Source of the DNA: an uncultured Chloroflexia bacterium
Lineage (GTDB): Bacteria > Chloroflexota > Limnocylindria > QHBO01
DNA length: 64,000 bases
NCBI GenBank assembly: GCA_963704115.1
Contig: CAVPGY010000007.1
Location: forward strand, 48,658 to 112,657
Direction: 5' to 3'
In this document: positions 42,649-61,671 of the stretch, in pieces
Layout: every line of letters starts with the position of its first letter
Numbering within the stretch: position 1 is the first letter of the stretch
Program-made: the position numbers and the translations under genes
The notes under the pieces: generated by a model
Seen by the model: the letters and a program-made list of their open reading frames with translations, nothing else
What the model was told of the DNA's origin: nothing
The model's database searches: none

Positions 42649-42697
42649 CGTGCAGGTTGCGCCGCCCTGGGCTGGTGGCCCGCGGGCCTCGTCCACC

Positions 42698-42836
42698 GCA
42701 GTTATCCGCCCGGGTATCCAACAGCCGCCGAGCGGTCGCTGGCCGTCCCCGCGTTACCGGCAGCGGTATCGGGCGAACTCTGATCACGGCCGACTTCCTG
42801 CGCCGATCGCCGTTGGTTACCCGGGCGGGTAACCGC
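42698..42836 (-). repeat. 139-bp element E1 (reverse orientation, divergent subfamily C)
   Basis: Reverse complement reads GCGGTTAC-N7-GGTAACCAAC...GATACC (offset 66)...GTTGGATACC-N6-GATAACTGC. Confidence 0.8.
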
Positions 42837-42849
42837 AGGGGCGGAGTGA

Positions 42850-43695
42850 TCAGCGGAGCCGATAGACCTCGATCGGCCGCTCCATGCCCTTGAGCTCCAT
42901 GGGGCCCTGGCTCTCGAACGCGAGGCCGCTCCCATCGGCCAGGCCGACGGTCATGACCGAGGCGAAGACCTCCGAAGGGCCGGCGAGAGCCATGATCCGA
43001 GCGGCCGCGTGCACCGCCACGCCGCCGATGTCGTCGCCGATCGGCTCCACCTCCCCGGTGTGGACGCCGATGCGCACGGCGACCTGGGTGTCACGCACCG
43101 CTTCGATGATGGCTGCGGCGCAGCGCAGTCCCGCCACCGCGCTGCGGAAGGTGGCGAGGAAGCCATCGCCCGTCGTGTTGACCTCGGCCCCGCCGAAGCG
43201 GCGCAGCTGCGCGCGGACGAGGCGGTTGTGATCGGAGAGCACCTGCTTCCAGGCGGCGTCGCCGAGCCGGTGGGCGGTCGGGGTCGAGTCGACGATATCG
43301 GTCATCAGCAGGGTGGTGACGATGCGCTCGTGCTCGCGGGGCAGGCCCAGCGTGTCGATGTTGCCCGCGAAGTCGATCAGCACCGCCGGCTCGTCACCGA
43401 CGACCCAGGCATCGTGGCCCGGTGGGACGTCCATCACGTCGCCGGGCTCGAAGGTCATCTCCTCACCGTCGTCCATGCGCACCGCGAAGCGCCCCGAGAG
43501 CAGGATCTGGACGTGGTGCACCGGGCAGGATTCGGCTCGCATGGTCGGCCCCAGGTGCTCCGTCCAGCGCCAGCCGGGCTGCACCACGCCACGACCGATC
43601 GTGTTCGCCCCGATCCGCGCAAGCTGGACCGTGAGCAGCGGCAGCTCGCGCAGGCCATCGGGGTCGCCAAAGTTCCGTCGCCGGATTGCACCCAT
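42850..43695 (-). CDS. Cupin domain fused to class III nucleotide cyclase domain
   Basis: QPGWRW...HHVQILLSG...PPGHDAWVVG cupin; LMTDIVDST, TTGDGFLA, RIGVHTGE, GVAVHAAARI cyclase. Confidence 0.85.
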   Translation of the reverse strand: MGAIRRRNFGDPDGLRELPLLTVQLARIGANTIGRGVVQPGWRWTEHLGPTMRAESCPVHHVQILLSGRFAVRMDDGEEMTFEPGDVMDVPPGHDAWVVGDEPAVLIDFAGNIDTLGLPREHERIVTTLLMTDIVDSTPTAHRLGDAAWKQVLSDHNRLVRAQLRRFGGAEVNTTGDGFLATFRSAVAGLRCAAAIIEAVRDTQVAVRIGVHTGEVEPIGDDIGGVAVHAAARIMALAGPSEVFASVMTVGLADGSGLAFESQGPMELKGMERPIEVYRLR

Positions 43696-43747
43696 CGGTC
43701 CATGGTGACGCCCCCGCGCAAGGCCGGCGCGCCCCACGACGCACCGC

Positions 43748-43886
43748 CGCGTTTCGCGCCGTGGTATCCAACTGACACTGAGCGCTATCCGGGTTTGCCC
43801 GCGTTATCCGCAGTGGTGGCGCGGGGCGCCTGAATGGCCCTCACTGCCTTGCTCGCCCGCCGTTGGTCGTCAGCACGGGTAACCGG
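43748..43886 (-). repeat. 139-bp element E2 (reverse orientation, most degenerate)
   Basis: Same length and box offsets as E1; keeps GGTTAC, CCAAC, GATAACGCGG and GTTGGATACC on the minus strand. Confidence 0.65.
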
Positions 43887-43973
43887 GCGCGCGGCCATTG
43901 CGCCGACGCTCGAGGGAGCGCCCCGGAGGAACCCGTTCCCTTCCGTGGTCCGTTCACGTACGCTCCGCACCGA

Positions 43974-45164
43974 ATGACGGCGGCGACGGTGGAACCCGCG
44001 GTCCCGGCCGACAAGGATCGGCGGCTCTCGGCACGCGCCCGGATCCTGCCGTGGGTCGTCTGGGCCTGGGCCGCGGTCGAAGCGGCGCTCCTCGCGGTCG
44101 CCCTTCTCCTCTTCCCGGCCCTGCCGGGCACCGCGTCGACCGCAGAGGTCATCGAGTTCGCCGCCTTCCTGGTGACGCTGGCGGTGGCGGTCATGGCGTT
44201 CGCCACGGCGGGACTGCTGGTCACGCTCCAGCAGGCGCGCAACGCGGTCGGCTGGGCGATGCTCGGCGGCGGCGCGGCACTGGGGGCCGTGTTCGTCGGC
44301 TACGCCGTCGGCGTGGCGATCCTCGAGACCGATCCGCAGCTCGGCGGCTGGTTCGTGCTCCTCGGCGTCGTGCTGTTCGGGCCGGCGCTCTACCTGCTCG
44401 GGCCGGGGCTGGCATCGGTCTTCCCCGATGGGCGCCCGCTGCGCGGATGGTGGGCGCGGGCCGCGTGGCTCACGTCGGCCGGGATCGTGATCGGCTCCAT
44501 CCTGGCGGCCGTCGTGCCGGGGCCGCTCGAGGAGAGCATCGATGCGGCGAACCCACTTGGCATCGCCGCACTGCCGGCCGGGTTGCGCGACCTGGCCGAT
44601 GGCGTGACAGCGCTGGCCCTCATGGCCGGCGGCATCGTCGGCGTGGCGTCGCTGGTGGTCCGCTTCCGGCGGGCGACCTCGGAGACCCGCCACCAGCTCA
44701 AGTGGTTCCTCTTCGCCGTGGCGATCTGGGCCGTCGTGCTGCCGATCAGCCTGGTCGTCGGCGACAACTGGACGGCGATCGCGGCGCTCCTCGCCCTGTC
44801 GCTCGTGCCGGCCGCCGTGGTCGTGGCGATCCGTCGCTATCGGCTCTACGAGATCGACGTGCTGATCAACCGGACGCTGGTCTACGTGCCGCTCGTCGGG
44901 ATCGTGGCGGGGCTGTTCGCCGGACTCACGGCGCTGCTCCAGCGCGTCTTCACCGCCGTGACCGGGAACGGGTCGGATGCGGCGGCGGTGATCAGTGCGC
45001 TGACGCTGGCCACCGTCTTCACGCCGATTCGCAACTGGATCCAGGCCGGCGTCGACCGACGCTGGAAGCCGGACGACACCAACGCGGCGGGCAGGTGGGA
45101 GGACCCCGAGTTCCGAGCCGCCGTGGAGGCCATCGTCCGCGACGTCACCGGGCGCCGGGGCTGA
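43974..45164 (+). CDS. Multi-pass membrane protein resembling a stand-alone sensor module
   Basis: About 10 TM helices; NAVGWAML, FPDGR, NPLGI, QLKWF, RYRLYEIDVLINRTLVY motifs. Confidence 0.75.
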   Translation: MTAATVEPAVPADKDRRLSARARILPWVVWAWAAVEAALLAVALLLFPALPGTASTAEVIEFAAFLVTLAVAVMAFATAGLLVTLQQARNAVGWAMLGGGAALGAVFVGYAVGVAILETDPQLGGWFVLLGVVLFGPALYLLGPGLASVFPDGRPLRGWWARAAWLTSAGIVIGSILAAVVPGPLEESIDAANPLGIAALPAGLRDLADGVTALALMAGGIVGVASLVVRFRRATSETRHQLKWFLFAVAIWAVVLPISLVVGDNWTAIAALLALSLVPAAVVVAIRRYRLYEIDVLINRTLVYVPLVGIVAGLFAGLTALLQRVFTAVTGNGSDAAAVISALTLATVFTPIRNWIQAGVDRRWKPDDTNAAGRWEDPEFRAAVEAIVRDVTGRRG

Positions 45165-45208
45165 GGGCGCACTGGGTCCCGCGGCCTCCGTGGCATCCCG
45201 ACAATGCG

Positions 45209-45347
45209 GCGGTTACTCGCCTCGGTATCCAATGGACCCCGAACCCCGGGGACGCCCCGCTTCCGACGCCGCCTGATACCCATGCCGGTACCCACCGGCC
45301 GTTCGGTCACGCCTCACCCGCCGATGGATACCCGTGCCGGTAACCGC
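45209..45347 (+). repeat. 139-bp element E3 (subfamily A)
   Basis: GCGGTTAC-N7-GGTATCCAA...GATACC...GGTACC...GATGGATACC...GGTAACCGC. Confidence 0.9.
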
Positions 45348-45390
45348 GGCCGCGCGGACAACCGCGGCCGGCGAAGCACGCGGCCGCCGA

Positions 45391-48300
45391 TCAGTTGCGG
45401 ACCGGCTGCCTCGCGTCGTCGGAGGCGGCCACCGGCTCCCCGTCCCTGGCGGTCATCGCTCGCTCCAGCAGGGCCAGCAGCGGCGCGGCCCCCAGCCGAT
45501 CGAAGAGCGCCCGTGCATCATCGGCAGCGGCACGGGCCTGCGGATCGGCCGGACCCACCATCGACACCCAGTCGACCGCGCACCAGCCTACCTCGACGTG
45601 GTGCCCGAGCTCGCGCCAGCGAGTGATCGCATCGGCGAACCCGGCGGTCGCGTCGGCGCGTCGGCCCTCCATCGCGGCGAGAGCCGCCTCGGCCTCGCGT
45701 CGGGCCGCTGCCGGAAGGCGTCCGGGCTTGTCACGGAAGTGATCGATCGCGCTCGTGAGCGCCGAGGCGTCTCCTCCCCAGGCCGCCGCGCGCGCGGCGA
45801 TCTGGAACGTGGTGGTGTCGGGAGCGCTACCGGCCTCGTACGCGCGGCGAGCCAGCGCGAGCGCCTCTGCGAAGTCACCCCTGGCCAGGGCGACGAGCGC
45901 CTCTGCCTCGTCCAGGGTGGCGAACACCTGGAGCTCGGTCGTGTCCCCGACCCTCTGCCGCACGGCGGCAAAGTCGGCCGCCACGTCCTCGCCGCGGAGC
46001 CCGCGGAACTCCGCGAGCCGGAACCGGGCCGAGGACTCTCCCAGCCCTGACAGCTCCTCCTCGAGCGCGCTGACCGCCCACTCCCACTCGCCATTCGAGA
46101 GGGCGAACGCCGCGGCGTTGCCGAGCATGTAATCCCCGTAGCCGGCCATCCCGTAGCGGCGCACCAGCTCGACCCCCTCTCTGGCCACGTCGAACGCCAT
46201 CCGCGGATCCTCGGCCGCGGCCGAGTAGCTGAGGTTGATGCGGGCGCGCAGTCCCACGTCGACCAGCCCGTAGGACGTGGCCGACGCCACCGCGCCGACC
46301 AGCGTGGTGACCGACTCGCGAATGCGTCCCGCCGCTGCCAGGCATGGACCACGGGTGACAAGGAGCTGGATCGTCTCACGGTTGAGCTCCAGCCGTTCCG
46401 CCGTGGGCAGGATCTCGTCCACGATCCGCATCGCGTCGGTGCCACGTCCCTGCAGCATCGTGGACCGGGCGAGCTCGGCGGCGAGCCGGACGTACTCGAC
46501 GGTGTCCTCGAGGTCGCGGTACTCCCGGTGTGCCGGCTCGAGCATGGCGATCGACTCGACCACCTTGCCCTGGACCGCGATCGCGAGCGCGTGGTCGTCG
46601 AATCGCCGACATGAGGAGGCGCCGATCGCCGCCTGCCCTGGCCAGCTCGAGCGCACGCTCGGTGTGCGCCGTCGTCTCGTCGACGAGCCCCGCGAAGAGT
46701 CCGGCGTCGCCGGCCGCCGCGTGGAGCTGGCGCTGCTCGTCGGGATCGGTCGTGACCTCCAGCGCACTCTCCAGGAACCGCATGGCCTGCACGAACGATC
46801 CGAGCGAGCGCGCCCGGTCGGCGGCCCCGCGGAGCGCGACGCGCGCCTGCGCCGCCACCGCGTCGCCCTCCGGCCCTTCGGGGTGGGCCCGGTACGCCGC
46901 CAGGTAGTGCTCGGCCAGCGCTCCGGCGATGCCCTCATCGTCGAGCGTCTCGTAGTGGCGCGCCGCCGCCAGGTGGAGCCGCCGTCGATCGGCGCGTGCG
47001 AGCGTGCCGTACGCGACCTCGCGGATCAACGCCTGGACGAACGTGAACTGCCCACGCTCTGGCGAACGAGGATCGACCTCGAGCGACAGCAGCTCGCGGC
47101 GCACGAGGTGGCGCAGCCGAGCGGCGATCGCCTCCGTGTCCTGGCCCGTCAGCGCCGCCAGCTCGTCGATGCTGAAGGTCTTGCCGACGATCGATGCCGC
47201 CTGGAGCAGTGACCGATCCTCCGCCTCCAGCGCGTCGAGGCGCGAAGCGATGAGCGCGTGGAGCGACGCCGGGACCGACAGCTCCGACAGGTCGCCGGTC
47301 GGTCGATAGACCCCATCGTCGAGCGACACGTGCCCCTCGCTCAGGAGCATGCGCACCGTCTCGACGGCATAGAGCGGAATACCCTCCGCACGCTCCAGGA
47401 CGCGCTCCACGACCGGGTCCGGCAGGCCCGGCACGAGGCCGGCGAGCAGCTCGCGCATCGATTCGGCGTCGAGCGGCTCGAGCACGAGCGAGGTGAAGTT
47501 GCGCCGGCCGGCGCCCCAATCGGCACGGCGATCGAGCAGCTCGGGGCGCGCCAGGCTGATCAGGTAGATCGGCCGGTCGCGCGACCACTCGAGGATGTGA
47601 TCGATGAAGTCGAGCAGGCCGCCATCGGCCCATTGGAGATCCTCGAACACCAGCACCACCACGCCCTGCTCGGCGATGCGCTCGAAGAAAACGCGCCACG
47701 CGGCGAACAGCGACTCGCGATCCGGGCGCGTGCCGGCGTCGGACGACTCGAGGCCCAGCAGCTGGAGCATGCGCGGCTCCATCCAGGCGCGTTCGGCCTC
47801 GTCGGGCACCCAGGTTGCGAGTGCTGTCGCCAGCTTCGCTCGTGCGGTGGCGGGGGCATCGGCCTCGGTGATCTCCGCCCGACCGCGCACCATCTCGGCC
47901 AGCGCCCAGAAGCTGATGCCCTCGCCGTACGCCGGCGAGCGGCCCTGGTGCCAGTAGACGACCTCGGTCACGCCGTCGAGGTACTTCTGGAACTCCCAGA
48001 CCAGCCGGCTCTTGCCGATGCCACCCTGCCCGATGATCGAGACGAGGCGCGGGCGTCGCTCGGCGGCGGTGGCGGCATGGAAGTCCTTGAGCATGCGCAG
48101 CTCGGCGGCGCGGCCCACGAACGGCGCCTCCAGCTGCTCGCTGCGTCCGGCCCCGCCCCGGCGCGCCACCACGCGCAGGGCGCGGTAGGCAGGCACCGGG
48201 GCCTGCTTGCCCTTGAGCAGCTGCTCGCCGGCCGGCTCGAAGGCGACCGCGCCGCTCGCCGCGTGGAAGGTCGACTCGCCCACCAGCACCGATCCCGGCG

Positions 48301-48913
48301 GCGCCACCGACTGCAGCCGGCTGGCCGTGTTGACGAGGTCGCCGGCGACCATGCCCTGGTTCGGTGGCACCCAGCGTGACGGCCGCCTCGCCGGTGAGCA
48401 CGCCGGCACGCAGCGTCAGCTCCGCCCCGATCTCGGTGCCGATCGCCCGCACGACCTCCACCAGGTCGAGCCCGCTGCGCACCGCCCGCTCCGCATCGTC
48501 CTCGTAGGCGATCGGCGCGCCCCAGACCGCCATGACCGCGTCACCGATGAACTTCTCGACGGTTCCGCCGTAGGCTGCCGATGATCTGGTTCGCCGTCTC
48601 GAAGTACCGGCCGAGCAGCTCTCGCACGGCTCTCGGGGTCCCGCGACTCCGACAGCGTGGTGAACCCCACCAGGTCCGCGAACAGCACCGAGACGAGGCG
48701 CCGCTCCGCGGTCGGTGCCGGGATCGATGCCGCTGGGGTGGACGCGGGTGCGGCGGCGGTCGCTCCAAGGGCTGAGCCACATTGGCCGCAGAACTTCACG
48801 CCGGGGGCGTTCGCCGCGCCGCACGACGGACATGACGCGGCCAGGCTCGCTCCACACTCGCCACAGAACCGCCGATCCGGCTCGTTCGGCGTCGCGCATG
48901 CCGGACAGATCAC
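45391..48913 (-). CDS. Second zinc ribbon/cyclase/AAA/TPR protein, multiply frameshifted
   Basis: [54 protein letters not shown] across at least 4 frames; paralog of 16631-20152. Confidence 0.8.
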
Positions 48914-48978
48914 TCGCGGCCTCCGTGCTGAGCGCCGAGTATCGGCGGGCACGGAGGACGGGTCAACCTGGTCGCGCG

Positions 48979-49098
48979 TCAGCGATGAGCCCGACGCGCG
49001 CGATCCTCCTGCCGCTCCTCGAGATACTCGAGGGGCACCGCCGCCAGGAGTGCCAGGCACCCCAGGCCGGTGAGAACGAGGAGGATGAGCTCCACCAT
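48979..49098 (-). CDS. Small single-TM protein (39 aa)
   Basis: [22 protein letters not shown] followed by a charged tail. Confidence 0.4.
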
Positions 49099-49198
49099 TC
49101 GCCCAGCGTGATCATCGAACGACGGTCGCGCCATGGGCCATAGGTCCGGTGGAGGTCCCCCGTCGACTGCCCGGGCCGGCATGACAACCTCGAGGCCG

Positions 49199-49972
49199 CT
49201 ACCCCTCGTCGAGCTTCAACAGCCCGAACATGGCGCCCTGCGGATCGCTGACGATCGCGAAACGGCCGCCCGGCATCGGCATCGGAGCCACCATCTCGGT
49301 CGCGCCCAGCCCGGTCGCCTTCGCGAACGCACCGTCGACATCGGCGACGTTGAAGTAGACCATCCAGTAGCTCGGTACCTCGGGCGGCATCGACGCCTGC
49401 ATCTCCATCCCGCCGGCGATCTGCTCTCCGTCGACCGAGAAGGTCGTGTAGTCCGGCTGACCCTCCCCCATGGGGCTCGTCTCGGCCTGCCAGCCGAAGA
49501 CCGTGCGGTAGAAGGCGATGGCCTTGTCGATCCCGCGCGCGTTGACCTCGGCCCACCCGAACGTGCCGGCGTCGCCGGTGCGGAACGACCGCATCCCGGT
49601 CGCCTGCCAGGCCGATATGACCGCACCGGACGGATCGGCGAAGACGGCCATGCGGCCCATGTCGCCCACGTCGAACGCCGGCGCGATGACGCTGCCGCCG
49701 GCGGCCTGGACCGCATCGCCGAGCGCTGCCGCGTCATCGGTCTCGATGTAGAGGCTCCAGGCGGTCGGTGCCTCCGGCATCATCTTGGCGGTGATCCCGG
49801 CCACGTCGCCGTCGCCGTCGGCAAGGCGCGCCATGGCGTAGCCGCCGTACTGGGGATCCTCCGACACCGAGATGTCCCATCCCAGCAGCTTGCCGTAGAA
49901 CTCGCGCGCTGCGGCGGGGTCGTCCGCCGCCAGCTCGACCCAGGCGGGCCGTGTCTTCGTGGCCGTGACCAT
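49199..49972 (-). CDS. Two-domain VOC/glyoxalase family protein (Rv0577-like)
   Basis: PAWVEL..FYGKLLGW, GRMAVFADPSGA, FGWAEVN, GGRFAIVSDPQGA. Confidence 0.9.
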   Translation of the reverse strand: MVTATKTRPAWVELAADDPAAAREFYGKLLGWDISVSEDPQYGGYAMARLADGDGDVAGITAKMMPEAPTAWSLYIETDDAAALGDAVQAAGGSVIAPAFDVGDMGRMAVFADPSGAVISAWQATGMRSFRTGDAGTFGWAEVNARGIDKAIAFYRTVFGWQAETSPMGEGQPDYTTFSVDGEQIAGGMEMQASMPPEVPSYWMVYFNVADVDGAFAKATGLGATEMVAPMPMPGGRFAIVSDPQGAMFGLLKLDEG

Positions 49973-50377
49973 GTCGTTCTCCGATCGTCTGTGAGCCGGG
50001 AATGCTGCGCCGATAGCGGTGCCGGGTCAAGGCACGGGGTTCTCCGCACTTGGGACCCGGCGCCGGCCCAGCGGGCCGGCAGCCCCCATGGACGCCGGTC
50101 CGAGCGAAAGGTCGGGCCGAGACGGCCGGGTCCGGCAGGCTGGCGGTGACCTGCGCCACATCCGTGATCCTCATCTGGCACTCCGACGATGCTCGGATCG
50201 TCGAAGTGACCCGTGAATCGCAGGATGACCGGGACTCCCCGTGGCCATGGACGCGCGCTGGCTCGTGCAGGGGACAACGACATCAGACGGCCCTCGGTGC
50301 CTGTGGGCCGCTGTGGGGCGGCGCTGCGGTTGCGATGCCACGTGACGACGCTCGCGCCCACGCGGACGTTGCCTTCG

Positions 50378-52389
50378 TCATGGTCGGATCGACTCCACGA
50401 CGAAGTTCTCCTCGCACTGGCGGAACATGGTGGTGGCCCCCGTCAGCCGGTTCGGGATGAAGGCAGGCGCGTCCGCCGGGAGGGTTCCGCCGTGCGACCC
50501 ACGGGTCTGCGGCACCAGGCGGCAGGTCGCCGATGCTTCGTCCCGGTAGTGGCCGGTGATTTCGACCCAGGCGTGCGTCGTCAACGGCCCCAAGTCCACC
50601 TCGTCCGGCACGTGCAGCGTCAGCCAGTTGTCGGACAGCTCCTCCTCGGCGGGAGCCACCACGGGGGTATATGACAAGGCCAGCCAACCCGGCTCAGGCG
50701 AGCCGGACCAACAGCATGGCAGGAAGGCGGCGTTGGGGACCCAGGCGCGGATCGCGACCGACGCGTCACCGAGGCAGGTGCCGGCGTAGGGCTCGAGGTA
50801 CAGCAGCAGGAGCGTCGAGATTGCCCCCGGCGGCGGGCATGGCGGCAGCGGCCCGGGGTACGTGACGGGATCTCCGGTGGGCTCCCAGGTGGCGCCGTCC
50901 GTGGAGTGCCAAAGCTGCGTACCTCGCCCATCCGGGCTGGCTCCAACGGTCACCCAGCCGGCGGCCCCCCACGCGGGCTCCGTGACCACCGACCCCCCGA
51001 GCGCGCCCGGGGAGACCGAGAGGCGCGTCCACGCCGATCCGTCGGTCGAGGCCCAGGTGGTCACCGCGAGCGAGCCGGTGGTCCAGCCAGTCGCGAGCAG
51101 ACCATCGGCACCAGCGCTGAGGCTCACGATCGAGAACGCGCCGTCATCGATACGTATCGGCGGACCGTCCCACGTCACCGCGCCCGAGGCGAGGAGCCGT
51201 CCGCGATGGAGGCTCGCGAGGGTCGTATCGGGCTCGACGGTCAGCAGGTAGACCCGATCGCCAACCAGTTCGCCGTCCGAGATCCAGTCGTCGATGCCAA
51301 GCGTCACGTCCAGCGGAGCCCATGTGATGCCGTCCGCCGAAGCCCATGGCCGGTCCTCTGTGCCCGGGACGAAGGCGAGATAGCCGCCGTCCGAGGACTC
51401 CAGTGCGACCTCGCCGTACTCGGAAATCGGCAGCGGCGCTCCTTCCGACCACGTCCGCCCGTCTGTTGATCGCCTGGCCGTGGCGCCGTCGACCATCACC
51501 CAGCCTGCCGCGCCGTAGGCAACCGCTCGTCCGCCAGGCTCGACGTCGAGAACTTCCCACGTCTCGCCATCGGTCGAGACGGCGACTCGGGTGACTCCCG
51601 GGTAGAAGCCCGCGAGGGCGACCATCGCGGTCGGACCGATCGCAATCTGGTGCATCTCTCCCGCGACGGCCCCGTGGATGTGCTCCACGTCACGCCGTCG
51701 CCGGATCGCCAGGTGGATGTCTCCCCGCCACCCTCGTATGGCAGCAGTAGTTCGCCCGGAGACTGGGTCCGAACGCCACGTACGTCGAGCCGTTCGATAC
51801 GACGCCGACGAGCCGCGATGCGTACGCCTTCCATGGCGTCACAGTGGGGACGAGATAGCGATCGTCGTCGGGGCCCGAGTAGGCAAAGCCCGTCGAACCA
51901 TCGGCGAGGATGGGTATCCAGGTGTCCGGCACCTGCCACAGCTCGGTACCCAGAGCGAGGTCACCGGCGTCGAGCGAGCCGACCACCGGATGCTCCGTTC
52001 CAGGCCCGGACCGAATGCTCAGGTCGTTCACGGCCGATACCAGCCACACGCCCCCGGCTTCGTACGGGCCGTCCCGGTCCGGCGCTGGCGGCCAGGGCAG
52101 GTGCGCCATCTCGGGCGGAGGAGCTTCCGTCGGTGCGACACTCGGCGCGTCGCTGGGGGCCGGTTCGAAGCTCGGCGTTGCCGAGGGCTCCGAGGTGCCG
52201 GTGGGCCATGGCGTCGGCGTCGGATCCGCGTCACCGGTGGGGCGCGCGTCACTCAGCACGACCAGCGCGACCACCGCAGCGACACCAAGCAGGACGGCAG
52301 CGCCGCCGATCGCAGCGAAGCCCGCTCCCCTCGGATGCCGCTCGATCCAGCCGGGCCATCCCCCCGCGCGGCTGCCCCGCGCCCGTCAT
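50378..52389 (-). CDS. Membrane-anchored SH3-like + BNR-like repeat + Cys-domain protein, frameshifted into at least 4 frame segments
   Basis: TM GFAAIGGAAVLLGVAAVVALVV; LSIRSGPG SH3b-like; repeated S-x-D-G-x-T-W; ITGHYRDEASATCR. Confidence 0.65.
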
Positions 52390-53069: not shown

Positions 53070-53725
53070 CGCAGGGCGCGCAGAGGCCACACGAAGGCCG
53101 CCGCTCGCAGGCCGCGCTCGCGCTCACGGCGGCCGGCCTCGGGATCCTGGCCGGGATCGCCGCCAAGCTCGCCGACGAGTCGGGGATCGGGTGGCTCAGC
53201 GACCTCGGCACCTTCGCGGCCATCTGGGTCCTGGTGATGGTCGTCATCGGCTGGACGGCACCGACGCTCACGGCTGCGGCCCTTCGCGCGGGACTGTTCT
53301 TCGTCGGACTCAGCCTCGCCTACTACGCGTTCTCCACCTTCGTGCTCGGTTACCCGGGCGGGGCGCTGGTGCAGCGCTGGGCGATCCTGGCGGTCACAGC
53401 GGTTCCGCTGGTGGCCGCGGCGACGTGGTGGGCGTCGCGACACCGGGGGCCGCTGCCGGCCGTCGTTCTGGGGCTGGTCGCCGCGATCGCGCTCATTGAT
53501 GGCAATGTGCTGCCGTTCTGGTACGCCGTCATCGGCGATCCGCTTCCGGCCGAGTTCCCCTATCGGCCGATCCAGGCGGTCGTCGAGATCGGCACCGCAT
53601 CCGTCATCGCCGGTCTCGTTCCGCGCAACTGGGCGACACGGGCGATGGCGCTGGTCGTCGTCGTCCCCGCGCTGTGGCTCGTGCCGGAGCTCGTGTCGAT
53701 CGCGATGCGCCTCGTGGCATTCTGA
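53066..53725 (+). CDS. Membrane protein (DUF6518-like)
   Basis: About 6 TM helices, LAYY motif; start uncertain (CTG overlapping the upstream stop, or a frameshift). Confidence 0.55.
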   Translation: MTQGAQRPHEGRRSQAALALTAAGLGILAGIAAKLADESGIGWLSDLGTFAAIWVLVMVVIGWTAPTLTAAALRAGLFFVGLSLAYYAFSTFVLGYPGGALVQRWAILAVTAVPLVAAATWWASRHRGPLPAVVLGLVAAIALIDGNVLPFWYAVIGDPLPAEFPYRPIQAVVEIGTASVIAGLVPRNWATRAMALVVVVPALWLVPELVSIAMRLVAF

Positions 53726-53811
53726 GTTCCGGCTGGCGCGGCATTTTCGGCACGTGCGGCTCGCCGCCGAACCACGGTCCTCCCGGGGCCCGCGGGTATA
53801 GGCTGAATGCG

Positions 53812-54180
53812 ATGACGCTCAGCCGATCTCGAGCGGCCCGCTACGCCCGACGGCGCAGGCGCCGCATGCAGCGCGTCGAGCACGATCTGAGCCCGGACCA
53901 GTGGGCCGCCCTGCAGGCGGCGTGGGGCGGCTGCGCCTACTGCGGCGCGACCGACGTGCCGCTCCAGCGCGACTGCGTGCTGCCGATCTCGCGAGGCGGG
54001 CGCTACACGCTCGACAACATCGCCCCGGCGTGTGGCTCCTGCAACGCGAGCAAGGGCAACCAGGAGGTCACGCGCTGGATGCGCCGCCATCGGCTCGACG
54101 AGCCGGCCTTCCTCCGGCGCCACCTCGCGATCTCCACCACGCTCGCCGCTGGCGACCTGGGGATTCCACCGCAGGAGTGA
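53812..54180 (+). CDS. HNH endonuclease-fold protein with DH replaced by DC
   Basis: CAYCG...QRDCVLPISRGG...NIAPACGSCNASK. Confidence 0.85.
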   Translation: MTLSRSRAARYARRRRRRMQRVEHDLSPDQWAALQAAWGGCAYCGATDVPLQRDCVLPISRGGRYTLDNIAPACGSCNASKGNQEVTRWMRRHRLDEPAFLRRHLAISTTLAAGDLGIPPQE

Positions 54181-54191
54181 CCTGGTGGCGC

Positions 54192-54233
54192 TGGCGACCG
54201 CTGACGGCAGGCGGGCACCTGGGGCCGTCTCGC
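54192..54233 (+). repeat. 42-bp direct repeat, copy 1
   Basis: 36/42 identical to 54499-54540. Confidence 0.8.
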
Positions 54234-54244
54234 TGGGCACCCCG

Positions 54245-54383
54245 GCGGTTACTCGCCCGGGTATCCAACTGACGGGTTCGGGCCGGTTCGCCCTACCTCA
54301 GCGGTCCGCCGATACCGGTGCCGATACCCCGCGACGCCCGAAGTGCTCGCCGTTCGCCGATGGATACCAATGCGGATAACCGC
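54245..54383 (+). repeat. 139-bp element E4 (subfamily B)
   Basis: GCGGTTACTCGCCCGGGTATCCAACTGAC...GATACCGGTGCCGATACC...GATGGATACC...GATAACCGC. Confidence 0.9.
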
Positions 54384-54498
54384 GGCTTCCGGGCGCGGCC
54401 AGGGGCTCACCGTCACCGGCGCCTCATCTGCCAGCTCCAGTTCGTGCTGACGGGCGTCGAGGCCGGCTAGACCAGCTCCGGGCGACGCACTGGCCGCG

Positions 54499-54540
54499 TG
54501 GCGACCATTGACAGCAGGTGGACACTTGGGGCCGTCTCGC
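54499..54540 (+). repeat. 42-bp direct repeat, copy 2 (possible promoter of the FG-GAP gene)
   Basis: TTGAC...CGTCT, ending 31 bp before the ATG at 54572. Confidence 0.75.
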
Positions 54541-54571
54541 GTCGTCGACGCGTACAGGAGGGGGCACCTCC

Positions 54572-56174
54572 ATGACCCGAGCCTCGAGCATCGCAGTCGC
54601 GGTCGCGCTGGCCTTGAGCGGTTGCGGAGCCACGGAGTCGACGCCCACCGGGTCGCCGACGCCCACGCAGACTCCCCCATCGTCCACTCCGTCGGCATCC
54701 ACCGCCGCATCGGCCGAACCGAGCCACGGGGAGCAGGCGCCGTCGGAATTCGCGGGAGCGTGGGAGGACGTCACACCATCGGAGCTGTCGGCGGCCGGCG
54801 CCTGGACGAACAAGCTCGAGCTGGCGGACCTGGACCTCGACGGCGACGTGGACATCCTGTTCGCGAACGGCGGTGACTACCAGAGCCCCGGTGAGCCGGT
54901 CGCCAGCGGGGCCTGGCGCAACAACGGCGACGGCACCTTCGTGGACGCCACCACCGAGATCCTGGGCGAGCACGCCCTCCTCACCCGCGTCATCAAGGTC
55001 GCGGACCTCAACGGCGACACCTTCCCCGATATCCTCATGGGCACGACGTACGACACCCAGAGCCGGCTCCTCCTCGGCTCCCCGGCCGGCACCTGGGCCG
55101 ATGTGACCGATACCCACCTGCCCGCCGCCGAGCTGAGCATCGGCGACCTCGAGTTCGGCGATGTCGATGCCGATGGCGACCTGGACGTGGCCATCGCCGA
55201 CTGGGGCGACAACGGCCCGATCAACGACCGCGGCGGCCGCACCGCGCTGTGGCTCAACGATGGGTCCGGCGTCTTCGCCGACGCGACCGATGCGCAGATG
55301 CCCGAGACGCTGGTGGGCTTCAGCTGGGACATCGAGGTCGTCGACGTCGACAACGACTGGGACCTCGATCTCGCCATCTCGTGCAAGCTCTGCCCGTCGA
55401 GCCTCCTGTTCGAGAACGACGGCACCGGCACCTTCGCCGATGTCACCGAAGGACGCTTGCCGGCGTTCACGAACAACTACGAGTTCGCGCCGATCGATCT
55501 CGACGGCGACGGGTTCCTGGACCTGGTGACGATCAACGACGGGGCGGACACGGGGAGCGGAGTCACCGAGCACGTGTTCCGCAACGACGGCGCGGGCAGC
55601 TTCGAGGACGCAACCGCCGAGTGGTGGCCGGCCGATGCGAACCTCGGCTGGGACGACAACGTCGTCGTGGCGATCGACATCGAGTCGGACGGTGACGCCG
55701 ACTTCGTCATCGGGTCGCTGGATGGTGCCGATCGGCTGCTCGTCAACGACGGGTCCGGCCGGCTGTCGGTGGTGCTCGACGCCTTCGTCGGGGAACCGAG
55801 CTCCGGGACGCTCGACCTGGCGATCGCGGACCTGAACGGCGACGGGCGGCCGGACCTGGTCGAGGCGCAGGGCGAGGTTGCCGAGGACGAGCGGATCTAC
55901 CTCGCCACCGAGGTGCTCGCCCCCGACACTGCCGCGCCGATCATCCGAGGGGAAATGGGACCGCGTCAGACGGTGCTCGCCCGCGTGCACGACAACCTCA
56001 CCCCGAACACCTCCCTGCGCTGGCAATCGATTGTGGCGCGATGGTCCGGCGGCGAGGTCCCGATGACCTGGTATGGCGAGCACCTCTTCCGGGTGACAGC
56101 TGCCCGACGGTGCGACGCTGACCGAGATCTGCGCGGTCGACGTCGCGGGCAACGAGACCTGCCTTCCCGGCTGA
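54572..56174 (+). CDS. FG-GAP/VCBS repeat lipoprotein, frameshift near 56100
   Basis: Lipobox ALSGC; repeated D-x-D-x-D-G-D-x-D motifs; shifted tail reads ...ICAVDVAGNETCLPG stop. Confidence 0.85.
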
Positions 56175-56223
56175 TGCCCCTCAGACCGTGGCCGATGCGG
56201 ACCATGCGCCCGCCGGCCCGCCC

Positions 56224-56363
56224 GCGGTTACTCGCCCGGGTATCCAACTGACCGGTCGGGGCTGGATCGGCCTGTCTCAGCGGTCCGCCGATACCGGTGC
56301 CGATACCCGGCGGCGTCCGAAGTGCGTGGCCGTTCGCCGATGGATACCGGTGCGAGTAACCGC
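56224..56363 (+). repeat. 140-bp element E5 (subfamily B)
   Basis: 25-bp terminal inverted repeat with 22/25 matches; same boxes as E4. Confidence 0.9.
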
Positions 56364-56474
56364 AGTTCGAGGGACCCGATACCGCGGCGTCCACGACGAT
56401 GAGCGCCGAGCCGCCAGCGGCCGCGTGAAAGCGACCCGCACAGAGGGCTGGCGTCGGCGTGCGAGGATGGGTGC

Positions 56475-57221
56475 ATGGCACTCCACGTCGAGCGCGCCGG
56501 CGAGGCCGGGCCGGCGGTCGTCCTCGTTCACGGTTCCGGGGCGCCCGGCTGGGGCGCGTGGGAGGCGGTCCGCCCGCTGGCGGAGCACTATCGGCTCGTC
56601 GTCCCCCACCGCAGCGGCTTCCCGCCGAATCCGCCGCTGGAGCGGATCGACTTCGAGGTGCAGGCCGATGAGATCGCCGCGCTGGTCGAGCCCGGCGCGC
56701 ACCTCGTCGGGCACTCGTACGGCGGGGTGGTCGCGCTCCTGGCGGCGGCGCGCACGGGCGACCGGCTCCGCTCACTGACCGTGATCGAGCCGCCGGCACT
56801 CGGGGTGGCGCGCGGCGACCCGGCGATCGAGCAGTTCATCGACGCCGTCGACGAGGCATCGGCCGTCGAGGGCACCCCGCGCGATCGGCTCGTGGCCTTT
56901 CTGCGGGTGGTCGGGTCGACCTCCGAGGTTCCCGACCCGCTGCCGCCGGGATTCGAGGCGATCACCCGGGCCAACGACGCCCAGCGACCGCCGCAGGAGG
57001 CGGAGATCCCGTTCGAGGCGATCCGGGCGACCGGCGTGCCGGTCCTCGTCGTGACCGGAGGGCACCTCATGGCCTACGACGTCATCGCGGAGGTGCTCGA
57101 GCGGGAGCTGCACGCGGAGCGCGCGATCCTTCCCGGCGCGGGGCACTCGGTCCAGCGGCTCGGCTCGCCCTTCAACGATCGGCTTGCCACCTTCGTCGAC
57201 ACGGCCGATCAGCGCGCCTGA
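56475..57221 (+). CDS. Alpha/beta hydrolase
   Basis: VLVHG, nucleophile elbow GHSYGG, PGAGH. Confidence 0.88.
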   Translation: MALHVERAGEAGPAVVLVHGSGAPGWGAWEAVRPLAEHYRLVVPHRSGFPPNPPLERIDFEVQADEIAALVEPGAHLVGHSYGGVVALLAAARTGDRLRSLTVIEPPALGVARGDPAIEQFIDAVDEASAVEGTPRDRLVAFLRVVGSTSEVPDPLPPGFEAITRANDAQRPPQEAEIPFEAIRATGVPVLVVTGGHLMAYDVIAEVLERELHAERAILPGAGHSVQRLGSPFNDRLATFVDTADQRA

Positions 57222-57268
57222 GGCTTGACCGCCCCCGGCGGCCCTTGGACCCGGGCGAGCGTGCGCAT

Positions 57269-57407
57269 GCGGTTACTCGCGCGGGTATCCAACTGACGGG
57301 TTGGGGCCGGATCGGCACGTCTCAGCGGTCCGCCGATACCGGTGCCGATACCCAGCGGCTGCCGAAGTCCGCGCCATTCGCCGATGGATACCAGCGCCGG
57401 TAACCGC
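57269..57407 (+). repeat. 139-bp element E6 (subfamily B)
   Basis: Same boxes and offsets as E4/E5. Confidence 0.9.
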
Positions 57408-57567
57408 GGCGCCGCGGGCAAGCGGCGCTCGGCCGGATGACGTAGCGGGGTCGCCCGAATGACCCGCCAGGGTCCGTGGCGCATGTCCGTGGGCGCCGGG
57501 GTTGCCAGCCCCGACGATCCACGTGCACATCCACCAGACATCCGCCACACCTTGGAGCCCAACCACC

Positions 57568-58974
57568 ATGGAATCGGTCCTGGCCCCCGAAGGCCGCAAC
57601 GACACCCCCGCCGACTTCACTCAGCTCGCCGCCACCCTGACGGGCACGGTCCTGACCCCCGACGCCGACGGCTACGAGGCCGCGCGGAGCGTCTGGAACC
57701 TCTACTACAACGATGCGCGGCCCGCCGCCGTCGTCCAGGCGGCAGACGCCAACGACGTCGCCCGGGCGATCGCCTTCGGCCGGGAGTTCGGGCTGGAGAT
57801 CGCGGTCCGCAGCGGCGGACACTCGATGGCCGGCTTCTCGACCGGCGATGGCGTGCTGGTCATCGACCTGCGCACGATCCGTGGCCTCCACATCGACCCG
57901 GAGACGCGCCTCGTATCGGCCGGTGCCGGCCTCAACGCCGGCGAGATCACCACGGCGCTCGTGCCGCACGAGCTCGCCATCCCGTTCGGCGACACCGCGA
58001 GCGTCGGGATCGCCGGGCTGACGCTGGGCGGTGGCATCGGCTACCTGGCCCGCAAGGCCGGCCTGGCCATCGATCGGCTGCGGAGCGTCGAGCTCGTCAC
58101 GGTCGACGGTGAGGTGCTCACCGCATCGGCCGACGAGCATGCCGACCTGTTCTGGGGCATTCGCGGCGGCGGCGGCAACTTCGGCGTCGTGACGCGCTTC
58201 GTGTACGAGGCGGTGCCGGTGGCCGAGACGCTGTCCGGCGCGCTCGTTCTGCCGCTCAGCGCCGAGGTCCTCTCCGGCGCCCTGGCGATCGCCGACGAGG
58301 CGCCCGAGGAGACGACCAGCATCTTCGAGATCATGGCCGCCCCGCCGGCGCCGTTCATCCCGGAGGACAAGGTCGGCACCCCGATCCTGACGATCCTCAT
58401 GGTCCACGCCGGTGATCCGGCCGACGGCCAGGCCGTGGCCGATCGGTTCCGGGCCCTGGCAACACCGATCGCCGACCTCGTGGCGCCGATGCCGTACGGC
58501 GGGATCTACCAGTTCTCCGCCGAGGCCGAGAACCCGATGCCGGCCGTGACCCGCTCGCTGTTCACGCGCGAGCTCCTGGGCCCCGAGGCCGTCGAACGGG
58601 TCGTGGCGCGCATGACCGATCCCGACGGACCGATGGTCGCGGTCAGCCAGGTCCGCGTCCTGGGCGGCGCGATGGGTCGCGTCCCGGCCGATGCCACCGC
58701 ATTCGCCCACCGCGACGCGAAGATCATGGTGACCCTCTACACGATCTTCGTCGACCCGGACAAGACGGCATCGGACATCGCCTGGACCCACGCCTACTTC
58801 GAGGAGCTGGCGCCGTTCGCCAGCGGGGTCTACGTGAACTTCCTCGACCTCGAGGGCGCGGCGCGCGTCCGCGACGCGTATCCATCGGCCACCTACGCGC
58901 GGCTGGCGGACCTCAAGACCCGATGGGATCCGGAGAACGTCCTCCGCCGCAACCAGAACGTGCGGCCCGCCTGA
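57568..58974 (+). CDS. FAD-binding oxidoreductase (berberine bridge enzyme-like)
   Basis: VRSGGHS, GIAGLTLGGG, FWGIRGGGGNFGVVT, YVNF, LKTRWDPENV. Confidence 0.9.
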   Translation: MESVLAPEGRNDTPADFTQLAATLTGTVLTPDADGYEAARSVWNLYYNDARPAAVVQAADANDVARAIAFGREFGLEIAVRSGGHSMAGFSTGDGVLVIDLRTIRGLHIDPETRLVSAGAGLNAGEITTALVPHELAIPFGDTASVGIAGLTLGGGIGYLARKAGLAIDRLRSVELVTVDGEVLTASADEHADLFWGIRGGGGNFGVVTRFVYEAVPVAETLSGALVLPLSAEVLSGALAIADEAPEETTSIFEIMAAPPAPFIPEDKVGTPILTILMVHAGDPADGQAVADRFRALATPIADLVAPMPYGGIYQFSAEAENPMPAVTRSLFTRELLGPEAVERVVARMTDPDGPMVAVSQVRVLGGAMGRVPADATAFAHRDAKIMVTLYTIFVDPDKTASDIAWTHAYFEELAPFASGVYVNFLDLEGAARVRDAYPSATYARLADLKTRWDPENVLRRNQNVRPA

Positions 58975-59018
58975 GGGCGGGTCGCACCCCGGCCGGGTGG
59001 TTCCGGGGTCCGACCAGG

Positions 59019-59157
59019 CCGGTTACCCGCCTCGGTATCCAACGGACCCCGAACCCGCGGAATCCCGACCTCCAGGCGCCGTCTGATACCGGGGCCGGTA
59101 CCCACCGGCCGCCCGGCCACGCCTCAACCGCCGATGGGTACCCGCGCCGGTAACCGC
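59019..59157 (+). repeat. 139-bp element E7 (subfamily A)
   Basis: Closely similar to E3 and E8; same offsets. Confidence 0.9.
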
Positions 59158-60428
59158 TCACCGTGGCCGCCGCCGATCGCGGCGTCGGCGCCACGCCATC
59201 GGAAGGCGCCATCCGCCCCGGGCTGGAGCGGGTACACCTCGACGAGCACGTCGGTGGGCGCGTGCACATCGCCCAGCACCGACCGCGGCTCGTCGCCGAG
59301 GACGTGCTCCAGGAACGCCACGAGGAACCCGCGGGTCACCGTCAGGACGGCGTCCGCAGTTCCCTCCAGCGGCAGGATGCGGGGCTGGAAGCGCGGGCCG
59401 TCCGTGAACGAGTCGTGGGCCGCGGCGGGCACGACGACGCGGTAGCCGCCGGCGCCGCCTTCCTCGAAGGCCTGGACGAGGGCGGGATGCAGCTCGGCAT
59501 CCTTGGTCAGGAACAGGAACGGGTTCGCCGGAGCCACGGGTTCGGTGCCGGTGCCGAACGGACCGGCCGCGTTCTGGCCGTCGAGGTTCGCGCAGGCACG
59601 GACGCGCGGGTCATCGCAGATCTGGACGGCGGCCAGTCCGCCGTTCGAGTGACCGATCACCGCGACGCGGCCGAGGTCGAGCCGCGCATCGAGCATCGCG
59701 AAACCGGCCGCATCGGCCTCCAGGCGGTCGAGAACGAAGCCGATGTCGGCGACCCGCTCGTCGATTCGCGCGCGTGTGACAGCTTCCGCCTGGGCCATCG
59801 GTGCGTCGCCGGCATAGGTCACGACGGAGTCGCCGATCGCCACGGCGGCGCTCTGGTACGGGTGGTCCAGGCCGATGACGACATAGCCGTGGCTCGCCAG
59901 CTCCTCCGCCAGGGCGCCGTAGAACTCGACGTTCGTGGCGTTCCCGGGAGAGAGAATGACGACCGGGTACGCCTCGTCGGTGCCCGCCACGGTGGCGCGG
60001 TGGCGGGCGGAGGTGCTCACCCAGTCGAGCCCGGCTCGCGCGAACGCATCGATCGCTCCACTGGCGACCAGTCCGTCGCCGATGCGGTCAAGGCCGTCAA
60101 GGTAGGCGGCAGGCTCACCGGTCCCGGCGACGGCCGGGTACCACGCGACGACCCGCACCTGGCGTCGATCACCCGGCGTCTCGGTGGCCACCTCGGCCCG
60201 AGACGCATCCTCCAGCAGCTGCGCCTCCTTCCCGACCGCGTGGATACCCGTCGGGTCGGGCGTCCGGAGGTGCAGGAACGTCGAAGCCACCGTGGACAGC
60301 GCCAGCAGCGCTGCGAACGCGAACACCAGGACCGCGGCCCGGCGCCGGTCGAGGTGCGGTGGACGGAGACCGGTGGTGCGGGCACGGGGCCACGCGCGGA
60401 CCGTCTGGCCCGTGATCGAATGCGTCAT
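59124..60428 (-). CDS. Secreted/anchored alpha/beta hydrolase (PAF-acetylhydrolase-like)
   Basis: N-term TM; GIHAVG, ELASHGYVVIGLDHPY, GHSNGG, ANLDG, AHDSFTD; 3' end as annotated runs 34 nt into E7. Confidence 0.8.
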   Translation of the reverse strand: MTHSITGQTVRAWPRARTTGLRPPHLDRRRAAVLVFAFAALLALSTVASTFLHLRTPDPTGIHAVGKEAQLLEDASRAEVATETPGDRRQVRVVAWYPAVAGTGEPAAYLDGLDRIGDGLVASGAIDAFARAGLDWVSTSARHRATVAGTDEAYPVVILSPGNATNVEFYGALAEELASHGYVVIGLDHPYQSAAVAIGDSVVTYAGDAPMAQAEAVTRARIDERVADIGFVLDRLEADAAGFAMLDARLDLGRVAVIGHSNGGLAAVQICDDPRVRACANLDGQNAAGPFGTGTEPVAPANPFLFLTKDAELHPALVQAFEEGGAGGYRVVVPAAAHDSFTDGPRFQPRILPLEGTADAVLTVTRGFLVAFLEHVLGDEPRSVLGDVHAPTDVLVEVYPLQPGADGAFRWRGADAAIGGGHGERLPARVPIGG

Positions 60429-60514
60429 GCGGCATGAACGCAGGCCGCGGCCGAAAGGTTCAATTCGCGGTGCGGCCGATCAGATGACAGGGGTCGCGCT
60501 ACGCTGAACGCGGC

Positions 60515-61477
60515 ATGGCACCACGCACTCCTGCGGTCGACTGGCTCCTGCGCTCTGATGAGCCGGCCGTCCGCTACCGGGCCCGGACGTGGCTTCTGCA
60601 TCAAGCCGAGACCGATCCCGACGTTCGCGGCGACCGCAACGCCGTCGCCACCGGGCCGATCGTCTCGACCCTGCTCGACTTCCCGGAGCCGAGCGTCAAT
60701 CCGTATCGGAAGTGGCTCGGCCTCCACTGGCGGCTCGTCTCCCTGGCCGATTTCGAGCTGCCCACGGATGACGCGACGCTGCGTACCGCCCTCGAAGCAG
60801 CCGTCGATCGTGAGCTCGACTGGATCGCGAACCCGCGACGGCTGGACGGGGTTCCTCGGATCGACGGGCTCTTTCGGCCTGATGCGTCGATGGAGGGCAA
60901 CGGTCTCTACGCGGCCAGCCGCTTCGGCGTAGCCGGCGACGAGCGCGCCCGGCGGCTGGCGCATCGGCTGATCGAGTGGCAGTGGCCCGATGGCGGCTGG
61001 AACTGCGATCGTGCCGCCACCGGCTACCGGTCGAGCTTCCACGAGAGCTGGCCGACCGCGCTGGGGCTGGCGGCATACCACGACGCAACCGGCGACGCCG
61101 ATGCCCTGGCTGCCGCGCGCCGCACCGCCGAGCTGCTGCTCGAGCATCGGCTGTTTAGGCGGCTGGCGGACGGCACGCGGATCCATCCCAGCTTCGTCGC
61201 ACTGCACTGGCCGGCCTACTGGCACTACGACGTGCTCGCCGGCCTCCGCGTGCTCCTCGCCACCGGGACCCTGGCCGATCCGCGCGCGACCGATGCGCTC
61301 GACCTCCTCGCTTCGAAGCAGCGCGCCGACGGCCGCTTCGAGACGCGCGCGACCTGGTGGCGGACCGGACGGCGTGCGACGTCGCCGGTAGACGTCATCG
61401 ACTGGGGCAAGGGCCGCCCCAGCGAGGTGCTCACCCTCCACGCCCTCCGCGTCCTTCTCGCCGCCACCGAGCGGTAG
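60515..61477 (+). CDS. Prenyltransferase/squalene-cyclase-like repeat hypothetical protein
   Basis: QWPDGGWNC and KQRADGRF QW-like repeats; YWHYDVL; GRPSEVLTLHALRVL. Confidence 0.65.
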   Translation: MAPRTPAVDWLLRSDEPAVRYRARTWLLHQAETDPDVRGDRNAVATGPIVSTLLDFPEPSVNPYRKWLGLHWRLVSLADFELPTDDATLRTALEAAVDRELDWIANPRRLDGVPRIDGLFRPDASMEGNGLYAASRFGVAGDERARRLAHRLIEWQWPDGGWNCDRAATGYRSSFHESWPTALGLAAYHDATGDADALAAARRTAELLLEHRLFRRLADGTRIHPSFVALHWPAYWHYDVLAGLRVLLATGTLADPRATDALDLLASKQRADGRFETRATWWRTGRRATSPVDVIDWGKGRPSEVLTLHALRVLLAATER

Positions 61478-61514
61478 CCTTCGTGGGCGTCTCGGCCGGG
61501 TGGTCCCACCAGGC

Positions 61515-61653
61515 GGGGTTACCCGCCTCGGTATCCAACGGACCCCGAACCCCCGGAATCCCCGCCCTCGGGCGCCGTCTGATACCCAAGCCGATACCCA
61601 CCGGCTGCCCAGTCACGCCTCAACCGCCGATGGATACCCGCGCCGGTAACCGC
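61515..61653 (+). repeat. 139-bp element E8 (subfamily A)
   Basis: Same boxes and offsets; shares upstream flank GGCCGGGTGGT..ACCAGG with E7. Confidence 0.9.
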
Positions 61654-61671
61654 GGCCGCTGAGCACCCCGC

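Follow-up and report, generated by a model that had tools for sequence, protein, structure and literature searches.

To our knowledge, among repeat populations of bacterial genomes that are maintained alongside one vertically inherited enzyme gene, only the REPIN-RAYT system is well described. It comprises doublets of repetitive extragenic palindromic (REP) sequences and the REP-associated tyrosine transposases described by Bertels and Rainey (PMC3337134, PMC3116915), and its defining relations are that the partner gene is flanked by its own repeats and that each paralogue has one repeat family (PMC3337134). For integron attC sites and clusters of attC sites lacking integrases (CALINs) our reference is Cury et al. 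2016 (PMC4889954), and for bacterial MITEs (miniature inverted-repeat transposable elements) a review (PMC10969869). Here, we analyze a 64,000-nt stretch of DNA (the window; G000:C7:48658-112657) that carries eight copies, E1 to E8, of a non-coding repeat element. The source genome, G000, is a Limnocylindria (Chloroflexota) metagenome-assembled genome (MAG) of 2.66 Mb on 13 contigs, ~70% complete and with 70% G+C. Limnocylindria are abundant uncultured Chloroflexota of soil and freshwater.

We consider it probable that E1-E8 are non-coding, non-autonomous repeats of the REPIN type and the DNA partner of a gene that we call B1, and that the array in the window is a local pile-up rather than an integron or CALIN. 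The family is explained by the start of a second element cluster, where B1 stands next to nrdJ. By analogy, the pairing of repeat family and gene is one that follows REPIN-RAYT logic with an unrelated enzyme, here an XRE-type helix-turn-helix (HTH) fused to a restriction-endonuclease-like domain, in a protein family labeled a transcriptional regulator by every source. If B cuts its repeats, the pair would be a second, independently evolved enzyme-plus-repeat replicator, and B also a nuclease whose sequence-specific target is long and composite; if, in addition, its sites drive gene turnover in islands, they would provide a new route of gene-order change. There is also a practical side, as such repeats break assemblies and most B homologues are found on contigs of 1-3 kb.

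Results

Anatomy of the element

We aligned 27 copies from G000 and 24 foreign copies. Counted from the left end's first T through the right end's last A, the element spans 129-131 bp in ~50 copies of five genomes, a length that stays constant even though copies fall to 55-60% identity. None of the ~50 copies shows a target-site duplication. The alignments contain three conserved two-part modules, the outer two inverted, and the sequence between the modules varies by subfamily. The module takes the form GGTTACC-N6-GGTATCC in G000, and in E6 (numbered from window 57269-57410) the three modules are as follows:

Module 1, element positions 3-22, GGTTACT-N6-GGTATCC
Module 2, element positions 67-84, GATACC-N6-GATACC
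Module 3, element positions 118-137, GGATACC-N6-GGTAACC

Spacings of 63 and 52 bp separate the module centers; these correspond to about six and five turns of the helix and would place the modules on one face of it.

The outer GGTTACC/GGTAACC boxes are as an earlier note on this DNA had described them, but that note overlooked better-conserved inner boxes, ATCCAAC...GTTGGAT, which in G000 match the attC consensus RYYYAAC/GTTRRRY. The best-conserved stretch of the element is this inner box with its flank, GGTATCCAACGG ... CCGTTGGATACC. The attC-like boxes are internal: 17 conserved nt lie outside them, so the outermost position is not attC-like, and the inner boxes of relatives (GATAACCAACGG ... 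CCGTTGGTTAYC, AACCAAC/GTTGGTT) do not match the consensus.

The terminal inverted repeats are ~25 nt long. The RNAalifold consensus fold has 8 invariant pairs and no compensatory change. For a 28-pair arm structure, 76.1% of cells are paired; shuffling gives 75.4%, and an equally good result was reached in 125 of 500 shuffles. Single-strand folding z-scores range from -0.6 to -5.3, and an Rfam search of window 40-64 kb returned no match. The lack of covariation in the arms suggests that they are conserved as sequence, as protein-binding sites are, and not as a hairpin. With no covariation, and with boxes that are internal and misfit in relatives, the sites are most likely not ordinary attC, as the earlier note had proposed.

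A candidate partner gene flanked by the element

That note had also placed the associated protein elsewhere, in agreement with the candidate found here. B1 is a ~217-aa gene (G000:C7:295.4-296.4 kb) that adjoins nrdJ, ~183 kb past the window end, in a second element cluster that is orthologous in five species (G000, G061, G066, G003 and G017). All five clusters begin at nrdJ (class II ribonucleotide reductase, 84-92% amino-acid identity) and have the order nrdJ - element - B1 - element, followed by variable genes with co-oriented elements. The B1-nrdJ pair is kept throughout the genus. Reading the intergenic regions of nine further species, we found a ~130-nt three-module element with other boxes on each side of B1 in seven; six of these seven have no match to the element model. 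Of the remaining two, G043 carries a different repeat in both B1-flanking positions and G009 has no element there.

Three B genes are present in G000. E elements flank B1, and the other two have flanking repeats of their own:

B2, C1:346423-347076, flanked by ~140-nt elements with GTGCC-N6-GGCAC-rCATCGG modules; ~seven more sites
B3, C1:318.1-318.9 kb, flanked by arrays of the palindrome GCCCGATAGATCGGGC; a family of >50 sites

On four metagenome contigs, B2 orthologues share one conserved context, between a Flp pilin gene and a two-component pair, and are flanked by three-module elements. The window itself has GCCCGATAGATCGGGC arrays with a 51-bp period at 32841-33270 (G000:C7:81.5-81.9 kb), which belong to the B3-flanking family.

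Three GGTAAG/GGTACG/GATAAG-like repeats with 11-bp spacing lie ~40 bp upstream of every B gene start. They precede B1, B2 and B3 orthologues whatever the flanking family (e.g., G000:C7:296350-296385; loci L210, L211 and L096-L104) and may be a promoter or operator.

Several further features of the nrdJ-B1 locus were noted. The nrdJ leader (L096-L104) is strongly conserved in the genus, with two tandem palindromes (ACCACCAGATGTTGTGGT) and a conserved 5′ leader, and a TTGACT...TATTACAGT pair lies in the upstream region; we take the palindromes to be of the NrdR-box type and the pair to be promoter-like. Matches to nrdJ are split within open frames of 1,400-1,840 aa in three relatives (G001:C180, G002:C11 and G006:C134), which suggests inteins. 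Between B1 and an element fragment in G000 lies a heliorhodopsin gene (C7:296415-297344; Pfam E 1e-79). Other cargo of the second cluster includes genes for MFS, MarC, TetR, a Na/Ca exchanger and a cyclopropane-fatty-acid-synthase-like methyltransferase.

Domains and predicted fold of the B protein

Pfam recognizes only the XRE-type HTH in B1, and no family in Pfam, NCBIfam or PADLOC covers the C-terminal domain, all matches being to generic HTH families. AlphaFold predicts B2 with a mean confidence (pLDDT) of 93.9 over the full length and 94.6 over the C-terminal 132 residues, which adopt an alpha-beta-beta-beta-alpha-beta topology in the model. Foldseek matches of this domain in the PDB are nearly all to restriction-endonuclease-fold structures (AF1548, Bax1, R2 endonuclease, Hjc resolvase, OkrAI, BspD6I, XisH, Can2 and AddAB), with a best E of 4e-3 and TM scores of 0.4-0.47. 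E29, D42 and E55 on strands 1-3, together with K73 (C-domain numbering), are invariant across B1, B2 and B3. The C-domain of B is thus predicted to fold like a PD-(D/E)xK nuclease. The recognition helix of the HTH differs between species groups with different repeat types, a covariation of sequences that fits cognate recognition.

Of 401 sampled Chloroflexota genomes, 36 encode the C-domain, in 1-9 copies; these 36 all fall into two families within the class of the window. Among 1.84 billion representatives, the family forms ~1,070 clusters at 50% identity, nearly all of ~217 aa. The named homologues are all labeled XRE-family regulator, and most of them come from contigs of 1-3 kb. In a limited literature search, we found no published account of REP-like repeats flanking an HTH/PD-(D/E)xK protein. 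G000 also has a partial C-domain match (C2:355761-355943, E 7e-18, positions 72-132) inside a 761-aa open frame.

Distribution among relatives

We searched 63 species genomes of the window's genus and 16 of other genera of the class with a covariance model of the element. The E family is restricted to the genus, where it occurs in 11 of the 63 genomes (0/16 outside it). A sister type with GACTAACGGCCAA boxes and the same layout is present in ~15 further genomes, including ~30 clustered copies in G024. Among sister species the copy number ranges from two to ~thirty, and one whole family can stand in place of another. A metagenome scan for the element gave 65 loci with one true member. B itself was tried as a marker of co-distribution and set aside: the family is present in 52/63 genomes, so its simple presence or absence is uninformative.

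Copies within islands are all co-oriented: 11/11 in the second cluster of G000, 6/6 in G061:C7, 5/5 in G003:C11 and 3/3 in G017:C54. One comparison captures the gain or loss of a single element: a pair of convergent genes is separated by an element in G061 and abuts in G003; divergence of the gene ends precludes a base-exact insertion point. A two-gene block is likewise bounded by elements in G061 and by none in G003. No near-identical strains were found, and an exact-protein look-up of the hydrolase between E5 and E6 gave no record.

Contig C4 of G076, a genome without E copies, holds homologues of seven window genes in a changed order (HxlR, flavin oxidoreductase, cupin-cyclase, glyoxalase, 434-aa hydrolase, HNH and a 433-aa gene), and all species vary in the region upstream of nrdJ. 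These islands therefore shuffle with or without an amplified family. With elements positioned at the ends of genes, homology blocks would be expected to stop near them in any case. The description of the window region as an accessory, rearranging island is borne out.

Among its window-gene homologues, the G076:C4 island holds another intergenic repeat family, with CGGATTCCTATCAC...GGAAC units:

L200:8318-8350
L200:11396-11483
L200:17907-17994

Element copies in the window

Repeat search, alignment and nhmmer recovered all eight copies at the places and on the strands first reported, with no copy in the first 42 kb of the window. Eight copies in 19 kb, given 28 full copies in 2.66 Mb, are clustered beyond chance (Poisson tail 5e-11). 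In window numbering, the copies are:

E1, 42695-42838, minus strand, full element by alignment, nhmmer score 94.8; between convergent genes 41482-42648 (plus, flavin oxidoreductase) and 42850-43737 (minus, cupin + cyclase)
E2, 43750-43887, minus strand, the most degenerate copy, nhmmer score 65.4; between the divergent starts of genes 42850-43737 (minus) and 43863-45164 (plus)
E3, 45208-45349, plus strand; between convergent genes 43863-45164 (plus) and 45391-48899 (minus, AAA_16/TPR regulator)
E4, 54244-54385, plus strand; 63 bp 3′ of HNH gene 53674-54180
E5, 56222-56365, plus strand; holds the stop codon (TGA) of FG-GAP gene 54518-56251, as called among open reading frames (ORFs)
E6, 57268-57409, plus strand; 46 bp 3′ of alpha/beta hydrolase gene 56475-57221
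E7, 59019-59158, plus strand; between convergent genes 57502-58974 (plus, FAD/BBE oxidase) and 59124-60428 (minus, hydrolase)
E8, 61514-61655, plus strand; 36 bp 3′ of gene 60515-61477

E4 belongs to one subfamily with E5 and E6, and E4 and E5 are 85% identical. The last codons of the hydrolase gene on the minus strand fall within E7, which thus sits between convergent genes. The earlier report that E3-E8 lie 37-64 bp past plus-strand stops needs amending for E5, which contains the FG-GAP stop, and for E7, which also reaches into the minus-strand gene. Five of the seven intervals do hold a single gene, as had been noted; the E3-E4 interval contains ~eight, which lie on both strands. Distances of 1.0-2.5 kb separate E4-E8, all of them plus-strand copies, as would suit attC sites of an integron or CALIN (two or more sites <4 kb apart on one strand).

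Other features of this region were recorded. A direct repeat of 42-45 nt (window 54189-54233 and 54497-54540; 86% identity, unique in the genome) brackets E4 plus 110 bp, and its second copy overlaps the FG-GAP gene start. The HNH endonuclease gene 53674-54180 lies inside the array, and an AspBHI-like restriction endonuclease gene (61837-63030) follows E8 at the array edge. Large cyclase/AAA_16/TPR regulator paralogues (window 45391-48899, minus strand; window 16631-20152; G000:C7:313.5-317.4 kb) are found repeatedly, in many species, within element islands or next to them. The regulator at 45391-48899 reads as two overlapping ORFs, for which a frameshift or an error in sequencing could account.

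Element copies in the rest of the genome

An iterated nhmmer profile gives 33 matches in G000, 28 of them full-length. The second cluster (C7:295.4-311.9 kb) contains 11 full copies and 3 partial ones (Poisson tail 1e-16), including three direct tandem pairs 14-30 bp apart. Single copies are found on C1, C2, C7, C9 and C11, ~ten of them on the four contigs other than C7. The genome scan proposed earlier thus confirms that copies cluster, but the family extends beyond the window and includes these singles elsewhere. Single copies occur inside ordinary operons in either orientation with gaps of 14-15 bp; one has a MeaB/B12-binding gene on one side and a 3-hydroxyacyl-CoA dehydrogenase gene on the other. 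Most copies are positioned just 3′ of stop codons, and partial tandem duplications of element halves are present. Adjacent copies are more similar than other pairs (0.69 vs 0.56), with 0/20,000 permutations as high.

The ends C1:1-8656 and C9:1-8660 are the same 8.7 kb at 98% identity in reverse orientation, with one element copy. The MAG probably holds two strains, and the C1 and C9 single copies are one locus assembled twice.

Search for a recombinase, transposase or parent element

Searching with PF00589, we found only a Xer-like pair in G000, ~37-45 kb apart, and likewise in six relatives, which have 2-4 such genes, none at an array. Neither an integron integrase (IntI) nor an array-linked tyrosine recombinase was found in the seven genomes, of which G000 is only 70% complete and the relatives 63-95%. 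A tyrosine recombinase beside a cluster, one of the possibilities raised by the earlier note, was accordingly not found by PF00589 in G000 or these relatives.

The Y1/HUH transposase (PF01797) occurs in 1/63 genus genomes, and that genome has no elements. In G000 and the 63 genomes, the end boxes never lie apart around a gene, and no transposase lies between lone ends. No multi-copy repeats resembling insertion sequences are present in the G000 assembly, although repeats of this kind may drop out of MAGs. Searching 12 genomes for a canonical dif core gave no match. None of the element-free genomes contains the module pattern, which is therefore unlikely to be the dif of the genus. The module was also considered as a Xer/dif site, a reading left unsupported by its absence from element-free genomes and by the lack of any link to Xer.

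Discussion

The proposal that E is the repeat partner of B1 builds on the anatomy of the element, the repeats flanking B1 and its paralogues, the predicted fold of B, the lineage-specific amplification to 10-30 copies and the gain or loss of one element. From these, we infer that B binds and cuts DNA and that the element is mobile. Dimers of B1 would bind the modules through the HTH, and the nuclease domain would nick or cut at them. Either repair-coupled copying or excision followed by insertion would then carry copies to new places, mostly nearby, and such short-range spread could lead to pile-ups in gene islands that tolerate insertions.

Several points weigh against this proposal. No element movement was observed, and simple transposition does not predict the co-orientation within islands (11/11, 6/6, 5/5, 3/3). 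Binding sites on both sides of the gene for the protein that binds them could just as well mark an autoregulated transcription factor. The nuclease assignment leans on weak Foldseek scores, and K73 sits on the next helix and not at E+2, so that the lysine of the classical (D/E)xK motif is absent from its usual place. The covariation of recognition helix and repeat type is confounded with phylogeny. G009 carries both repeat types, dispersed across its genome, yet its nrdJ-linked B gene is unflanked (locus L100, G009:C6:190-208 kb); the repeat populations there may be orphans, or their cognate gene may sit at another place. Finally, B1 in the G000 assembly is split over two reading frames, reflecting either an inactive gene there or a MAG error.

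Because co-orientation and neighbor similarity are unexplained, a role in gene shuffling is possible, if unproven. We hold it unlikely, however, that the elements form a gene-shuffling platform, at whose co-oriented three-module sites genes would be captured, duplicated and lost through breaks or exchanges by the B nuclease, or through host recombination between 130-bp homologies. Such a platform would build integron-like arrays beside nrdJ-B1 and at the window island, with a nuclease in place of the tyrosine recombinase. It would account for the nrdJ-B1 anchor followed in five species by a variable, element-punctuated array with elements co-oriented relative to the anchor, for the likeness of neighboring elements, and for the direct tandem pairs 14-30 bp apart and half-element duplications. 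The heliorhodopsin gene that in G000 separates B1 from an element fragment, and the window genes that are unlinked in relatives but adjoin between E4, E5, E6 and E7, point the same way. Yet one element is present or absent between collinear genes (G061 vs G003), the element-bounded two-gene block of G061 exists without elements in G003, and species without an amplified family show just as much shuffling of nrdJ-side and window-type islands. Single copies lie within operons, the E3-E4 interval holds its ~eight genes on both strands, and homology blocks ending near elements are what elements at gene ends would give anyway. The site-specific cassette shuffling favored by the earlier note is not supported: no integrase was found in the seven genomes, the arms do not covary, single copies sit in operons, an element alone can be present or absent, and islands are shuffled without the family. 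Its alternative, a REP-like family in an accessory region, came closer to the present outcome, to which the gene for a cognate protein is now added.

It is less likely still that B proteins are plain transcription factors or nucleoid proteins and that the elements are host regulatory or architectural sites, that is, three phased operators serving as insulators, terminators or silencers of accessory genes and spread by local duplication only. The range from two to ~thirty copies between sister species and the replacement of families fit selfish amplification better than a regulon, a repressor needs no conserved nuclease-fold domain with invariant acidic residues, and insertions inside operons with 14-15 bp gaps also speak against such a role. 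Regulatory sites would nevertheless fit the conservation of modules and length while the inter-module sequence drifts, the two positions that B-flanking copies hold across the genus, the placement of most copies directly 3′ of stop codons, and the label of XRE-family regulator that B has in every database. We give very little weight to divergent attC sites of a CALIN, or to a MITE left by an insertion sequence with a DDE transposase. The inner boxes of G000 fit RYYYAAC/GTTRRRY, E4-E8 lie <4 kb apart on one strand, and integrons are known in Chloroflexi (PMC4889954), but IntI was found in none of the seven genomes, the arms show no covariation (125/500 shuffles as good; 8 invariant pairs only), and the boxes misfit in relatives and leave 17 conserved nt outside the supposed R boxes. 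A MITE would explain the ~25-nt terminal inverted repeats and is contradicted by the lack of target duplication, by ends that are never apart around a gene and by constant length at 60% identity.

Comparison with known systems

Like integron attC arrays and CALINs, the E system places a palindromic site after a gene, keeps its sites to one strand with a species-specific sequence, and has an array beside a conserved chromosomal gene and two boxes per arm with a short spacer. It differs in having no integron integrase and in conserving sequence rather than structure. E sites also occur singly in operons and beside genes of either strand, with several genes between some of them.

MITEs of the Correia/ERIC type share with E a size of 100-150 bp, terminal inverted repeats, intergenic location and patchy distribution. 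In contrast to these, E has no target-site duplication or parent insertion sequence, keeps a constant length at 40% divergence and contains an internal third site.

The pdif modules of Acinetobacter plasmids are XerC/XerD sites bounding single-gene modules. E resembles them in its short two-armed sites with a 6-bp spacer that bound single accessory genes, and a Xer-like pair provides the only tyrosine recombinases here. Unlike pdif, E has three modules per element, its module is absent from element-free genomes and no Xer link was found.

The likeness to REPIN-RAYT extends to both the repeats and the gene. Both have two inverted imperfect palindromes with a spacer, extragenic position, no target duplication and tens of copies; in both, a single-copy, vertically inherited gene has its own flanking repeats, several paralogues per genome have a repeat family each, and copy number varies by lineage. 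The E system differs in that its partner has an XRE-HTH and a predicted PD-(D/E)xK-fold domain in place of a Y1/HUH transposase. There is no sign of selected hairpin pairing in E elements, which have a third, internal module, and their copies are strongly clustered and co-oriented.

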